A stretch of 62,365 nucleotides of DNA, from positions 1 to 62,365 of IMG/VR virus record IMGVR_UViG_3300018868_000006. One strand, given 5' to 3'. Within the stretch, counting starts at the first letter, position 1. Every line of letters begins with the position of its first letter. Of the stretch, positions 8,157 to 13,129 are shown piece after piece. The DNA comes from a virus. Lineage: Duplodnaviria; Caudoviricetes. The notes under the pieces are model-generated. The model was not told the origin of the DNA. It saw only the letters and a list, made by a program, of their open reading frames with translations, and made no database searches. The position numbers and the translations under genes were made by a program.

Positions 8157-10154
8157 GTGGACGATACGCCCTTCGTAAACGATGGGGCAGACACGTCCTT
8201 GCGGAAGGCGGTCAGTCTCCTTAACAAGATTGAGGCTAAGACTGGGTCGGCCACCATTACTGGCCCAGTCACGGTCACTAACGAAGTTGAGATTAAAAAC
8301 GATGCGAACAATCCTCTACCCGTAAGCGACAACAACGGTTCTCTGACCGTTGACGGCACAGTCGAACTTGGCTCAACGAGTCTTGCTGCCCTAGAGAACA
8401 TCAGCGTCACCTTTCCAGCGACTCAGAATGTAAATGTCACCAATGCTGGGTTAAGTGTTTCGGTATCGAATCTTCCGGCGACTCAGCCCGTCTCGCTTGC
8501 CTCAGTTCCTTCGCACCCAGTCACTGGCACGTTTTGGCAAGCTACTCAGCCCGTCTCCCTAGCCTCCGCTCCCGTTACCCCAGTCACTGATAACGGCGGA
8601 TCATTGACTGTGGATGGGACAGTCACTGTCAACGACATGACCAGCGGGAACGCAAAGACAAAAGTCGTAGATTCAGCCGGAGCTGACGTGTCCTACATTA
8701 CTGCTGGCACGGCTGGAACTCCGTCTCCAAATGTGCTTACCGTGCAGGGGATTAGTGGCGGAGTTTCTCTGCCTATCTCTGGCACGGTGACGGCGAACCT
8801 TTCCGCAACAGACTTTTCTGAGCTTGAAAACATCGCTATAAACACACAGAGTCTTTCCTCCATTGGTGGAACCTACGAATCAGCCGCCACGACAGACACT
8901 GGAACGTTTTCAGTCTTAGCATTTATCAAACGTGGAATGCAGAATTGGACAAGCCTTCTTGCAAAAATTCCAGCTCTTGTTTCTGGAAGAATTCCAGTTG
9001 ATGGGTCTGGTGTAACTCAACCAATCTCGGCTTCTTCGCTCCCACTTCCATCTGGTGCTTCGACTGCGGCTAAACAACCAGCTCTTGGGACTGCTGGAAC
9101 TCCCTCATCCGACGTAATCACTGTTCAAGGAGCTTCTGCTGGAACAGCTTTAAATACTAAGGAAACTCAGCCTACTGGTGATTACGTTATTAACTCTGGT
9201 CCGTTAAGTTTTGTCGCACCTAATAATGTTGTCACCACGACCTCAACTTTCGACGCAGGAGCAAATGCGGATTATGTAGTGCTCTCCGCTAGTTTTGGTG
9301 GGCCAAGTGGTGGACATCTAATTGATGTATCAACCGACGGTACTTATTGGCAAAGCGGAACATACAATTCAATCTATTATGATGCGCCAGCATTAAGTTC
9401 GACTGATACATATAGTTACAGAGGAGCGACCGGTTCATTGTACGGAGGCACCCAAACCAGCTATTCCGGACGTTATATTATAAACTGCGTCCAGGCTGTT
9501 CCTTTTCAGAACTATTCTGCAAGTTTCCGTTATTTTAGAATTACAACAGCGGCTACATACGGTTCGCTTAGGTACAGGTTTACATCTTACAAAAGTATTA
9601 AAAACTCGATTACTGGGGCTAACGCCGGATCAATAACAACCGTCAATGGACGTGTTGACGTTGGTTATGTTTCGGCCTTACCAACGCTTAGTGCGACTGT
9701 TACTCAAGCAACAGCTACAAACTTAAAGACTCAGGCTGAAAACTACCAAGGGGGGACTGCTGTTGGGTCTGCTAATCCTCTCCAAGTCACTCTTGCAAAT
9801 ACTGCGGCCAACGCAACAGCCGTTAAAGTTGACGGATCTGCCGTAACTCAACCAGTTAGCGGAACCGTTACGATTAATAATTCTCAAGGTGCAACCGTAA
9901 CTCAGAGCACGTTTACTAGTACAACTGCATCTACTTCCTTGGTTGCAGCGAGTGCAAATAGAAAAACCCTAACGGTTTTCAACGAAGGAGCAGGGATGCT
10001 TTACGTTTCAGTCGGAGCAACGTGTACAAGTACCTCTTATCAGGTGAGGCTGTCAGCCGGGGACTACTGGGAGTGTCCGTCCAATCAAACTTCACTGGCT
10101 CACACGGCAGTGTTTGCTACATCCGGAAATGCTAGAGTAACAGAAGTGGTTTAA
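8157..10154 (+). CDS. Fibre-like virion protein with TQPVS repeats
   Basis: Thr/Ser/Val-rich, repeated TQPVSL, DNGGSLTVDGTV and GTAGTPS units; beta-rich C-terminal domain. Confidence 0.6.
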   Translation: MDDTPFVNDGADTSLRKAVSLLNKIEAKTGSATITGPVTVTNEVEIKNDANNPLPVSDNNGSLTVDGTVELGSTSLAALENISVTFPATQNVNVTNAGLSVSVSNLPATQPVSLASVPSHPVTGTFWQATQPVSLASAPVTPVTDNGGSLTVDGTVTVNDMTSGNAKTKVVDSAGADVSYITAGTAGTPSPNVLTVQGISGGVSLPISGTVTANLSATDFSELENIAINTQSLSSIGGTYESAATTDTGTFSVLAFIKRGMQNWTSLLAKIPALVSGRIPVDGSGVTQPISASSLPLPSGASTAAKQPALGTAGTPSSDVITVQGASAGTALNTKETQPTGDYVINSGPLSFVAPNNVVTTTSTFDAGANADYVVLSASFGGPSGGHLIDVSTDGTYWQSGTYNSIYYDAPALSSTDTYSYRGATGSLYGGTQTSYSGRYIINCVQAVPFQNYSASFRYFRITTAATYGSLRYRFTSYKSIKNSITGANAGSITTVNGRVDVGYVSALPTLSATVTQATATNLKTQAENYQGGTAVGSANPLQVTLANTAANATAVKVDGSAVTQPVSGTVTINNSQGATVTQSTFTSTTASTSLVAASANRKTLTVFNEGAGMLYVSVGATCTSTSYQVRLSAGDYWECPSNQTSLAHTAVFATSGNARVTEVV

Positions 10155-10159
10155 TACCT

Positions 10160-10777
10160 ATGCTAGAAAAAGCACCAGTTCGTCCGCCTTTCCCGATGTC
10201 TGGGTACAACGCGAGCAATAAACGAACTTATGCTCCCGATGGTTGCTGGGATTACTTTAGTACCGGTGGTGGTGGCACAATCTCATCGGTCCTTGGGCAA
10301 ATGACACTATTCCCCTTTTACATTAGATATGACGTTCCAGCTAGTGCTCTTGAAATGAAAAGTTCCTATGCAGCAAACGGCTACGGCACAAGCGGAAACT
10401 CAAATACTGCGGTTTGGGGGATGTATCGTGTTGGCTCAAGTTTATATGACTCCTCGCTTTATGAATCCGTAACCATTGTCGATAGCACCTCCACATATAT
10501 GACTCCGACTAAAACGCAGACGATGTCTCTAGCATACCCGAAAGGATGGTATATTGCTTCGATTGTATTTATCGCTGCAACTGCTGGATCTGGGTCAGTA
10601 AGTTCAGCTTTTGCAAAGAATGAACCAGTTTTTGGTTCTCTCACCAATTACTCAATTGCTGGCGCAAGTATGGGACACGTTGGGATTACTGGACAAACAT
10701 CCGGATTACCCTCAAACCTTAACTCCGTAACACTTTCAAATATATATTACCACGCTCCTATATCTCTAAGATACTGA
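10160..10777 (+). CDS. Hypothetical beta-rich virion protein
   Basis: 205 aa, coupled to the upstream fibre gene. Confidence 0.6.
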   Translation: MLEKAPVRPPFPMSGYNASNKRTYAPDGCWDYFSTGGGGTISSVLGQMTLFPFYIRYDVPASALEMKSSYAANGYGTSGNSNTAVWGMYRVGSSLYDSSLYESVTIVDSTSTYMTPTKTQTMSLAYPKGWYIASIVFIAATAGSGSVSSAFAKNEPVFGSLTNYSIAGASMGHVGITGQTSGLPSNLNSVTLSNIYYHAPISLRY

Positions 10778-10778
10778 T

Positions 10779-11342
10779 ATGCCCACCGTCCTCCCATTAA
10801 AGATCCGTAAAGCTCCGACGATTTACGAGGTCGCTACATTTCACGCAGACACGGCTCCCTTTAAAACCGGCAATCGAGCCAAGCTCCGAACATCCCCACG
10901 TACTGGAACGTTTTATTCTAGTGCTGGGTCTGGTAAATATGTTGAAAACTGCGGGGCAACAGGTTTTGAGTTTGTGAAGCCCTCAAGTGGCACACCGACG
11001 TATAGATATTACCCAAGTATGAATAGGTATAACTGGAATGACGATTTCATTTATGGGACACCCACATACGCCGACTCTGGCCACTCTAACTATGCTTTTT
11101 GGCAGTCTGTATCCCCAAATCTCTATTCGTTTCTCAACACTTATCACTCGGGTGGCTTGCCGACCAACAAGCTTATTAGGGTATGGGTATCCTGGGATAA
11201 GTACGTTTCCGTATCTCCTAGAGCTTTTGAGTATTTCCCCGAGCTTGATGAGGAACAGTGGCAATATGAGAAGCGTCGAAGTTACTCGTATCTCGCTACA
11301 TCTCCCGCTGGTGTTTGCTGTCGGTATGCTATCTTTAGTTAG
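10779..11342 (+). CDS. Hypothetical aromatic-rich protein
   Basis: 187 aa ORF, ends just before the group I ribozyme. Confidence 0.6.
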   Translation: MPTVLPLKIRKAPTIYEVATFHADTAPFKTGNRAKLRTSPRTGTFYSSAGSGKYVENCGATGFEFVKPSSGTPTYRYYPSMNRYNWNDDFIYGTPTYADSGHSNYAFWQSVSPNLYSFLNTYHSGGLPTNKLIRVWVSWDKYVSVSPRAFEYFPELDEEQWQYEKRRSYSYLATSPAGVCCRYAIFS

Positions 11343-11359
11343 TTCTTTAACAGATTATC

Positions 11360-11577
11360 GGCCCGTACTGCTTAAATTCGGTGGAACTGTTGGGAGATAC
11401 CCAAGACAATACCGAGCCAAGGGCGCAACGCTTTGCGTCAAGGTGTAGAGACTACTGGAGGCTTAGGAAGCCTTAATGACCAGCCTGAACAAGCAGGGTG
11501 TCTAACGACATCAAGATATAGTCCAATCCACCCGGTGACGGGTCGGTATAAATGCGATTCTCATTTGGGATCGGGTC
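11360..11577 (+). ncRNA. Group I intron-type ribozyme (IA-like core), intergenic, possibly circularly permuted
   Basis: P3 CTGCTT 11368-73/AAGCAG 11491-96; P4 TTCGGT 11377-82/ACCGAG 11411-16; R element GGTGTAGAGACTA 11442-54; S element AAGATATAGTCC 11513-24; P8 GGTGTC/GACATC; P9 ACCCG-GTGA-CGGGT. Confidence 0.9.
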
Positions 11578-11594
11578 AAAGCATAGATTAGGTA

Positions 11595-11621
11595 TTGACA
11601 GAATTCAAAGTGAGTTACGAT
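11595..11621 (+). promoter_or_regulatory. Promoter-like TTGACA-N15-TACGAT upstream of capsid leader
   Basis: Consensus -35 and TAnnnT -10 with short spacer. Confidence 0.5.
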
Positions 11622-11625
11622 TTCT

Positions 11626-11800
11626 TTAGCTGTTAGGAATTGGCATGGGCGTACTCGCGGGCCGCCACCGCGTTAGCTAAGACCAAAACGAGCGCGGGCA
11701 ATAAAAGCTCTGGGATGCCGCCAGGGGAACCAAACATAGGAACTGCCATTACCTTCGGCAATGGACTTACAGTTCTTAACTCACTTTTGAAAGGATATTT
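11626..11800 (+). promoter_or_regulatory. Structured 5' leader of major capsid gene
   Basis: Several hairpins plus two competing pairings for 11770-11780; SD-like GAAAGGA 11789-95. Confidence 0.5.
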
Positions 11801-11806
11801 AATAAT

Positions 11807-13129
11807 ATGGCTACGACTTATACAAATATCGAACAGTTGCTGGTTTCTGAAAGTTCCCGCATCGGTGACGATATTTATCGCAAGACAGTTGATACGAGCC
11901 CCTGGCTCAAATTGGTGAAACAAGATGCTTGGCCGGATGAGATGGGCGATTCCGTCTCTGTCTTGGTTTACGAGCGTTCGCTCCCTTACAATACTGACGG
12001 GTCTGCTAAAGTTAGCTGGTCCTCTACTGTAACGCAAAACGGTGCCGCCTATGGCTCATCGGATTTTGCGAGTGGGACCAACACCCTCAACAATACTGGA
12101 AATGACTCGGCCTCGGCCTCGGCATTCCCCACTTCACCCGCCAGCACCATTGACTTCGGTCAGACGCTTCGGACTTACGGGTTGTTCCACGCGGCACTCG
12201 AATCCCCGAACATCTCGCTGAACGATCTGCGCTTCCCGATGAAACGGAAAGAACAGCTCGCCAACATCATGCAGATTCTCACCGAATCTACTACTGAAGT
12301 CTGGATTCAGCGCTATCGCGATCAGTACATCTCGATCGCCCAGAACAAGTTGGTGGCTACCACAGACACCACCGCCTATACTGGGTTCGATACAACGATT
12401 ACTGGTGTTCAGCGTAACACGACTGGTTCAACCTCGGCAGCTCAGTCTTCGGCTGGCTTCTTGAACGGAGCTACTCCGCTCGCTGGTGGAACTCAGTTGA
12501 CCCAAACCATCCTTGATCGGGTGTATATGGATCTTCTCCGTAACGGAGCGGGTGCAAACGCCTACGATCGGAATAACGGAGCCCCTGTGTTCTTGGCGAT
12601 TATGTCGCCCGAAACCAGTGACTCCCTAATTCGCGCTAACGCGGATATCCGTCAGGACTTCCGTTGGAGCGATCGGGTTAGCGAATTGCTTGCTCCTCTT
12701 GGTGTGCAGCGCAGCTACCGCAACTTCCATCACTTGGTTGATGCGTTTGCTCCTCGCTACAAGATCACAAGCAATGCGTTCGTTCGTGTGTACCCCTTCA
12801 TCAAGGTTGCAAACGATCTTGGTAACGCCCGCCAAGGCTTCAAGTATGAGCTTAACTCTGAATACTTGAACGCTGCGTGGGAAGATACCATCATCTTTGT
12901 TCCCGATGTGTTCACGAGCTTGGTTCCCAAGCCCTTGAGCATCGGTAATGGGATGGAGTTCAACGCACAAAACTATCGTGGTGAGTTCACTTGGAGGAAC
13001 ATCCTCGATCGCGAAAAAAATCCAGATGGCACAGTAGGCTACTTCCGGGCTGTATTCAGCAACGGTGGCAAGCCCATCTTCCCCCATCAGGGCTACGTGA
13101 TCCGTCACTTGCGCAACACCATCGCCTAA
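11807..13129 (+). CDS. Major capsid protein
   Basis: 440 aa in head module, own promoter/SD, followed by a small gene and strong terminator. Confidence 0.8.
   Translation: MATTYTNIEQLLVSESSRIGDDIYRKTVDTSPWLKLVKQDAWPDEMGDSVSVLVYERSLPYNTDGSAKVSWSSTVTQNGAAYGSSDFASGTNTLNNTGNDSASASAFPTSPASTIDFGQTLRTYGLFHAALESPNISLNDLRFPMKRKEQLANIMQILTESTTEVWIQRYRDQYISIAQNKLVATTDTTAYTGFDTTITGVQRNTTGSTSAAQSSAGFLNGATPLAGGTQLTQTILDRVYMDLLRNGAGANAYDRNNGAPVFLAIMSPETSDSLIRANADIRQDFRWSDRVSELLAPLGVQRSYRNFHHLVDAFAPRYKITSNAFVRVYPFIKVANDLGNARQGFKYELNSEYLNAAWEDTIIFVPDVFTSLVPKPLSIGNGMEFNAQNYRGEFTWRNILDREKNPDGTVGYFRAVFSNGGKPIFPHQGYVIRHLRNTIA

Follow-up and report, generated by a model that had tools for sequence, protein, structure and literature searches.

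A natural group I ribozyme that is circularly permuted, opened in the loop of P1 (L1), is the reading that we favour, with a probability of roughly 0.6, for a conserved RNA element in the viral record IMGVR_UViG_3300018868_000006, a lake-water virus sequence of 62,365 bases (86% complete by CheckV) whose whole length is referred to here as the window. The locus is the 464 non-coding bases that separate a 187-amino-acid (aa) open reading frame (ORF; 10779-11342) from a 440-aa gene (11807-13129). Group I ribozymes are textbook self-splicing introns; the parts found here are arranged, from 5' to 3', as clamp strands and a small hairpin (11310-59), an internal guide sequence (IGS; 11360-64), helices P3 to P9 (11368-11543), the sequence AAAUG ending at 11554, a second hairpin (11555-72), the putative P1 substrate GGGU↓C (11573-77, with the arrow at the predicted reactive bond) and the 3' clamp strands (11580-11601). 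The same order of IGS, core, candidate omega-G, enclosed segment and 5' splice site is seen in the window and in all 31 distinct relatives compared, in agreement with an initial annotation of this DNA that had proposed a permuted order with the candidate omega-G upstream of the 5' splice-site helix.

The group I core is real and, to judge from the changes among related sequences, under selection. A sensitive scan of 11200-11900 with the Rfam model RF00028 matches 11300-11545 on the + strand over the whole model (48.6 bits, E 3e-11), which bears out the annotated core on the native sequence; at Rfam's curated thresholds (gathering score 50 for RF00028) the window gives no match, and three of three homologous loci score above that cut-off at the same place (66.9, 57.7 and 54.6 bits). 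Relatives were taken from two scans, of viral and of metagenome contigs respectively, with five loci from each, and alignment A2 comprises the resulting six distinct sequences: the window, L002 (=L007), L003 (=L004, L005, L009), L006 (=L010), L008 and L011. Over the full structure, 98.3% of 479 cells in A2 are paired, as against 93.0% in shuffles, and 12 base pairs have changed on both sides (six in P6a, three in the hairpin, and one each in P8, P9 and the outer clamp), a number that none of 500 shuffles reached. When the pairing partners are slid by 1-3 columns as a control, 30-44% of cells remain paired. A genome scan returned 115 matching stretches; among the 80 that were listed, P7 motifs are present in one (L235), and the rest are chance matches.

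All helices lie on the + strand, and every helix and motif of the core that the initial annotation had listed was recovered at the same positions. The Rfam alignment and pair counts support P3 (11368-73 / 11491-96), P4 (11377-82 / 11411-16), P5 (11388-94 / 11400-06), P6 (11417-18 / 11442-43), P7 (11450-54 / 11519-23), P7.1 (11455-58 / 11480-83) and P7.2 (11459-64 / 11468-73), and the Rfam alignment likewise supports P6a (11422-28 / 11433-39), where the six double-sided changes fall. P8 (11497-502 / 11507-12) and P9 (11530-34 / 11539-43, with a GUGA loop) each contain one pair changed on both sides, and J8/7 has the sequence AAGAUA; the catalytic core extends from 11368 to 11543.

The helix that would be P1 is formed by GGCCC (11360-64), the putative IGS and 3' strand, which lies 3 nucleotides (nt) before P3, and GGGUC (11573-77), the putative substrate strand, with U11576 opposite G11361 in the kind of wobble pair that a group I 5' splice site should have, and the predicted reactive bond between U11576 and C11577. 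The pairing is present in all six close sequences, and RNAalifold, run without an imposed structure, recovers both this helix and the clamp 11325-30 / 11580-85. Its identity comes from other phage ribozymes with near-identical P7/P7.1, which were supplied by two core-motif scans. Eight of these interrupt a ribonucleotide-reductase gene as canonical introns and carry a homing-endonuclease ORF. In the five with enough sequence (L086, L088, L090, L095, L100), the reductase reading frame sets the exon boundaries: the last letters of the 5' exon, AGACGU, are paired by the intron segment GCGUCU, which lies 4 nt before P3, and that segment follows a stretch complementary to the 3' exon's first 8 nt. 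This lineage has no P2, its IGS lies directly 5' of P3, and the endonuclease gene occupies the P1 loop. Because GGCCC occupies the place of the IGS in these canonical relatives, the GGCCC/GGGUC helix is assigned as P1 and not as P2, the role that it had been given initially.

A position-fixed test extended the comparison to distant members, which were gathered in three further scans from which chance hits (L103, L105, L108, L286, L292 and L300) were discarded; L290 and L297 are cut by contig ends. The test takes the guide 5-mer that ends 3 nt before the P3 motif and requires three Watson-Crick pairs plus a U opposite G, and it finds at least one site 20-260 nt after the 3' strand of P7 in 31 of 31 distinct relatives, with 49 sites in total as against 19.4 expected from shuffles. 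Written as guide/site, with the guide G of the wobble in brackets, the combinations comprise G[G]CCC/GGGU↓C, C[G]CCC/GGGU↓G (in L081), U[G]CCC/GGGU↓A (in L107), U[G]GCC/GGCU↓A (in 11 sequences), U[G]GCC/GGCU↓G (in L288 and L291), C[G]GCC/GGCU↓G (in L293), A[G]UCC/GGAU↓U (in L132) and G[G]UCC/GGAU↓C (in L096 and L099). The U.G wobble, U11576-G11361 in the window, is unchanged in all 31 relatives and also in L096 and L099, and the pairs flanking it vary on both sides; by these sequence comparisons, the P1 neighbours of the wobble covary across subfamilies.

Between the core and the substrate strand lies the sequence AAAUG (11550-11554), invariant in the six close sequences, whose final G11554 is the candidate omega-G. 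An A-rich run that ends in G is found at the same place in relatives and also before the inferred 3' splice site of the canonical relatives, and the assignment is made by analogy with them. The hairpin that follows (11555-11572; stem 11556-61 / 11567-72, loop CAUUU) forms the body of a 22-nt 'mini-exon' predicted at 11555-11576. Three pairs of this hairpin (11555/6-11572/3) have changed on both sides and indels occur in L050 and L011, so that the stem is kept and the sequence is not; since it is the stem and not the sequence that covaries, the hairpin looks like a geometry-setting spacer rather than a product with a sequence-specific job.

This hairpin is also the basis of the arrangement proposed by the initial annotation, in which 11555-73 is P1, U11561-G11567 is the splice-site wobble, the enclosed exon is 7 nt long, and GGGUC/GGCCC is a P2 opened at its loop. 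Both the hairpin and the GGGUC/GGCCC pairing, when looked for in homologues, proved to be kept in the six close sequences, and the loop-closing U.G of the hairpin is UG in all six; in L057 and L094, however, it is lost, being replaced by G-C or C-G, and the hairpin sequence varies freely, whereas the U.G that is invariant sits in the helix that joins the element's 5' and 3' ends, at the IGS place of the P2-less canonical relatives. A layout opened in L2 does seem to exist in L026 (=L067) and L085, where GGGU, a short loop and GCCC make up a single P1 hairpin some 95 nt beyond the A-rich run to G, and where the strand following that hairpin pairs over 16-27 base pairs (bp) with the strand just before P3, the features of a second permutation type with P2 opened at its loop. 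The letters of that P1 hairpin, GGGU and GCCC, are the ones used in the window by the 5'/3' helix and not by the hairpin, and because the same P1 letters occur in both layouts, they support the P1 assignment made here for the window. An opening in L2 is thus improbable for the window itself, where the break is placed in L1, although as a layout it finds its counterpart in these relatives; the enclosed segment becomes 22 nt (11555-11576) instead of 7, and the predicted addition of G moves from C11562 to C11577.

Outside P1, the element continues into conserved flanks. The six close sequences stay conserved from 11310 to 11602; past that point they fall into two unrelated downstream types. The element, placed by the initial annotation at 11360-11577, is thus larger than those borders and overlaps the end of the upstream ORF. 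The 5' flank (11310-11359, + strand) contains the clamp strand UAUGCU (11325-30), an outer clamp strand and a small hairpin with the loop GUUCUUUAA; the 3' flank (11580-11602, + strand) contains the clamp strands AGCAUA (11580-85) and GACAG (11597-11601). The 5' strand of the outer clamp is 11318-22 in a manual register and 11308-10 plus 11316-19 according to RNAalifold, and the both-sided clamp change is from C-G to U-A in L050. Two candidate pairings involving these regions were set aside. A P10 between CGAU (11555-58) and AUCG (11357-60) is possible in the window only, as relatives change the hairpin (CAAG, CGCG) and keep AUCG constant, and any P10 pairing beyond the first C-G pair is, on this comparison, treated as chance. 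A closing duplex of about 40 bp between 11310-58 and 11627-69 reaches -35.1 kcal/mol in the window (shuffles -26.5 +/- 2.8, minimum -35.3), and it occurs with the type-1 downstream flank only (L008 -33.8, L011 -28.7 kcal/mol); with type 2 it is absent, the values for L077 (-25.3), L032 (-26.2) and L050 (-21.2 kcal/mol) equalling the shuffle mean, and as it is not conserved between flank types it is not counted as part of the element. The letters TTGACA at 11595-600 resemble a promoter -35 box; the promoter scan lists none there, and they are explained as clamp strand.

A separate observation concerns the motif (A)GUUCUUU(AA), found at 11335-11352 in the window and at the 5' edge of L085, L026, L091, L119, L127, L131, L133, L153 and L161. 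It forms the loop of a hairpin with a covarying stem in several relatives and lies within the closing helix in L026 and L085. A pairing partner for the motif was sought in the window and none was found, and further occurrences in the window of the loop motif from the 5' flank do not exceed chance (seven matches against 5.9 expected).

The overlap with the upstream ORF raises the question of an ordinary group I intron, with P1/P2 in the last 40 nt of that ORF and a 3' site downstream, which would supply an alternative C-terminus for the 187-aa protein. RF00028 does align P1 to 11304-25, a 6-bp hairpin at 11307-12 / 11320-25 pairs in 88.9% of A2 cells, and the end of the ORF (11310-11342) is unusually conserved, being near-invariant at the nucleotide level among the six close sequences. 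Neither register for P1, however, does better than shuffled alignments, as the initial annotation, which saw no convincing P1 upstream, would lead one to expect: the Rfam register pairs in 70.4% of cells against 66.9% when shuffled, the second in 88.9% against 86.5%, with 134 of 500 shuffles as high, and the triplet 11322-24 varies freely (CGG, AGG, AGA, CAA) without compensation. The conservation of the ORF end is accounted for by the clamp helices. The protein has 27 database homologues, of which 23 were aligned (without the partial P0023 and P0027, and without P0007 and P0011), and all 23 end in GVCCRYAIF followed by S, T or D, preceded by a variable stretch; this invariant protein end is explained by the RNA, because the last 11 codons (11310-11342) belong to the clamp helices of the element.

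Nor is a 3' exon in evidence. A coding exon after G11554 would add a 24-aa tail in the window, which is broken by indels and early stops in L006 and L011, and the reading frames that follow G11554 or 11601 are not conserved. Moreover, some relatives have only 2-20 A+U-rich nt from a stop codon to the guide sequence, and in L293 the ribozyme begins about 10 nt after a sigma-70-like promoter (11-of-12 match). An ordinary intron is thus quite improbable here, and the element, as far as these sequences tell, is not a gene-interrupting intron, since no flanking exons are joined into a continuous ORF; its initial description as a stand-alone ribozyme downstream of an ORF that stops at 11342 holds.

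Several points weigh against a permuted ribozyme opened in L1. The RF00028 score of the window falls 1.4 bits below the curated cut-off; P1 is only 5 bp long and is invariant among the six close sequences, so that its covariation rests on distant subfamilies aligned by position, and the 31 relatives share kinship and are not 31 independent trials. Some of them offer two candidate sites, L057 and L104 have no +1 pair, and a search in which the guide position is left free finds no excess over shuffles (two sites in the window against 3.1 expected), the position-fixed test being the informative one. The window has a second GGGUC inside P9 (11540-44), which is not conserved, occurring in altered form in three of the six close sequences and being absent from the other three. 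The omega-G rests on analogy and is ambiguous in the L081, L093, L101 group. Finally, L096 and L099 carry an intrinsic terminator 10 nt after the site, and L057 and L091 have an A+U-rich hairpin after the element with no same-strand gene evident. A further feature of the guide region is that 11356-66 can form 11 bp with 11537-11549, P9's 3' strand plus the adjoining downstream bases (-17.7 kcal/mol), a pairing favoured by the single-sequence minimum-free-energy fold; it was not adopted, as the covariation of P9 speaks against it, and it could be a competing inactive fold or chance.

How would an element of this kind act? In the permuted ribozyme proposed here, P1 would form by pairing of the element's 5' end with its 3' end, the wobble U11576-G11361 would mark the reactive bond, and the two further flank helices (11318-30 / 11580-11601) would clamp the ends together. 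In a first step, a guanosine nucleotide bound in P7, in cells mostly guanosine triphosphate (GTP), would attack after U11576, cutting the transcript and leaving a G on C11577; the RNA of the capsid-gene leader would be split in this way from the upstream message and would gain a new 5' end. In a second step, predicted with less certainty, the 3'-OH of U11576 would attack after G11554, freeing 11555-11576 as a 22-nt circle and leaving an upstream RNA that ends in the folded ribozyme. For the window, transcript processing that yields a new G-bearing 5' end is the most likely function under this model, and such a use is proposed with less certainty than the permuted architecture.

Four metatranscriptome runs were available as Logan contigs, which display neither RNA ends nor tiny circles, and these contigs neither support nor refute the permuted arrangement. 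No joint at 11554 or 11576 appears in them, with 10700-11371 and 11540-11623 uncovered. Contig depth is 250-1100 over the capsid-like gene, the highest of the stretch, and 5-34 over a short ribozyme piece from a relative (about 11372-11539). Within the leader, RNA contigs start at 11626, 11695 or 11726, contig starts not being RNA ends, and in one run adapter sequence stands some 9 nt ahead of 11695.

The genomic contexts of the relatives are varied. In eight relatives the AUG of the next gene follows the site after 2-7 nt, and in the L127 group the AUG of a protein of about 600-1000 aa follows it after 6 nt; in L093 the downstream gene matches phrog_5838, a virion structural protein. L081, L093, L094, L101, L102, L104, L106 and L107, with L127, L131, L133 and L148, have the predicted cleavage site 2-8 nt before the next start codon and a P1 substrate strand that is Shine-Dalgarno-like, and cleavage in them would leave an almost leaderless mRNA. 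The L284 subfamily (L284, L285, L291, L293, L295, L296, L298), with the guide UGGCC or CGGCC and the site GGCU, has its ribozyme about 10 nt downstream of a sigma-70-like promoter (as checked in L293) and an enclosed segment of about 95 nt with conserved motifs; 11-84 nt separate its site from the following AUG, which starts a very basic protein of 118-129 aa that has no PHROG family. No single biological use fits all of these contexts, and because of the terminator in L096 and L099 and the surroundings of the element in L057 and L091, maturation of a downstream mRNA is not general.

The same contexts bear on whether the fold might be kept while its catalysis is unused, the element being a domesticated intron remnant that serves as a stable structure, either a 3'-end protector or a leader, in which the P1-like helix of the relatives would hide a ribosome-binding site. 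The Shine-Dalgarno-like GGGU strand close to the next AUG in the eight relatives is what such a remnant would predict, as is the position of the element directly before a terminator in L096 and L099. Mere structure, however, would not need an invariant U.G wobble, an A-rich run to G after P9, an unchanged P7 and J8/7, or a core as conserved as in splicing relatives, and because these are all present they point to selection for catalysis. We consider a non-catalytic remnant unlikely.

Among known systems, the canonical reductase introns (L086, L088, L090, L095, L100) are like the window in their P3-P9 core, P7.1 and P7.2, in the letters of P7 and J8/7, in an IGS before P3 with no P2, in the U.G wobble of P1 and in the A-rich run to a G, the candidate omega-G of the window. 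They differ in having the 5' exon and the 5' strand of P1 upstream, with exons that rejoin into a protein, whereas in the window the 5' strand of P1 comes downstream of the candidate omega-G and no coding sequence is restored. The endonuclease ORF of the L086 and L088 introns has TGA codons in frame at positions that are occupied by tryptophan in the L090 homologue (as in a GDGC.T.G motif), which suggests either that TGA is read as tryptophan or that these endonuclease genes are decaying. A group I intron with the same P7/P7.1 letters also lies in an apparent tRNA gene of a 321-kb viral contig (L087).

The closest likeness in layout is man-made. In self-targeting-and-splicing constructs, the Tetrahymena intron circularises kilobase inserts (PMC10457212); these share with the window the order of IGS, ribozyme, omega-G (a candidate in the window), insert and a target ending in U, with antisense clamps at both ends (optional in the constructs), and, as predicted for the window, the products are an insert circle and a cut-off tail (PMC10457212). 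Unlike the constructs, the family described here is natural and phage-borne, and its insert is 18-33 nt in most relatives and 22 nt in the window. A back-splicing group I intron of coral mitochondria has a permuted intron-exon arrangement with a circular exon intermediate, where the gene order in the DNA is conventional, the permutation arises via transcription of the circular genome, and ND5 is spliced (PMC6545197); in the window, the permuted order is that of the DNA, and splicing of a gene is not involved. This one coral mitochondrial transcript is the only case of a permuted group I arrangement known to be on record outside the laboratory (PMC6545197), and full-text literature searches, subscription journals and supplements aside, turned up no DNA-encoded permuted group I ribozyme in phages or bacteria. 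Bacterial group II introns with a circular permutation are also stand-alone self-splicing ribozymes, lie outside ORFs and release small RNA circles; they differ from the window as another ribozyme class with branching chemistry, and they are bacterial and not phage-borne (PMC8637638).

The window could also be compared with a lariat-capping derivative that caps the downstream RNA by branching. Its model, GIR1, is derived from group I, is not itself an intron, cuts upstream of an mRNA and modifies the 5' end of that mRNA, and the topology is similar, with a core of group I descent, a helix that joins the 5' end to sequence beyond the cleavage site, and an mRNA downstream. GIR1, however, is eukaryotic and branches with a 3-nt lariat on a remodelled core, while the window retains the G-binding helix P7 and a standard P1 wobble in a core near-identical to that of canonical splicing introns, and RF00028 is the only Rfam family to match within 11200-11900 at E up to 10. 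The branching of GIR1 takes place in one step (PMC8637638). A GIR1-like element is highly improbable here.

Of the neighbouring genes, the upstream 187-aa ORF (+ strand) has no family in Pfam or PHROG, and the 440-aa gene (+ strand), which starts 230 nt beyond the predicted reaction site, likewise has no Pfam or PHROG match; it is probably the major capsid protein, with the atlas neighbours of its product, which carry Phage_capsid_3 (41% of members) and N4-gp56 major capsid, serving as a lead only. Its leader (11603-11806, + strand) is of two sequence types in relatives with one shared hairpin block (about 11694-11730), in which pairing is kept through two compensatory changes among the six close sequences; on these sequences, the leader is not assigned to the ribozyme. 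A 665-aa ORF at 8157-10154, without PHROG or Pfam family, has repeated Thr/Ser/Val-rich segments and may encode a fibre-like structural protein. Annotated phage records, searched at the DNA level, gave no match, and the neighbouring genes, including those in relatives, have no family in PHROG or Pfam apart from the phrog_5838 gene of L093.

Taken as a family, these elements may be natural permuted group I ribozymes of phages, with at least two break points (L1, and L2 in L026 and L085), that work as GTP-dependent RNA-processing modules and not as introns, a joint interpretation that we put forward tentatively, at somewhat less than even odds. As such they would cut a few to tens of nt ahead of a structural gene, or where an operon ends, add a guanosine triphosphate 5' end, made by the ribozyme yet resembling a primary one, that could shield the mRNA from 5'-end-dependent decay, and shed tiny circles, of 22 nt in the window and about 100 nt in the L284 subfamily. 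The predicted reaction site is precise and cheaply testable by in vitro transcription. The permuted layout has so far been known mainly from laboratory designs and, if active, the element would be a natural counterpart of a design now used for making circular RNA; it would mean that a group I core can be used as an mRNA-processing or 5'-end-tagging device, and that phages make very small circular RNAs.

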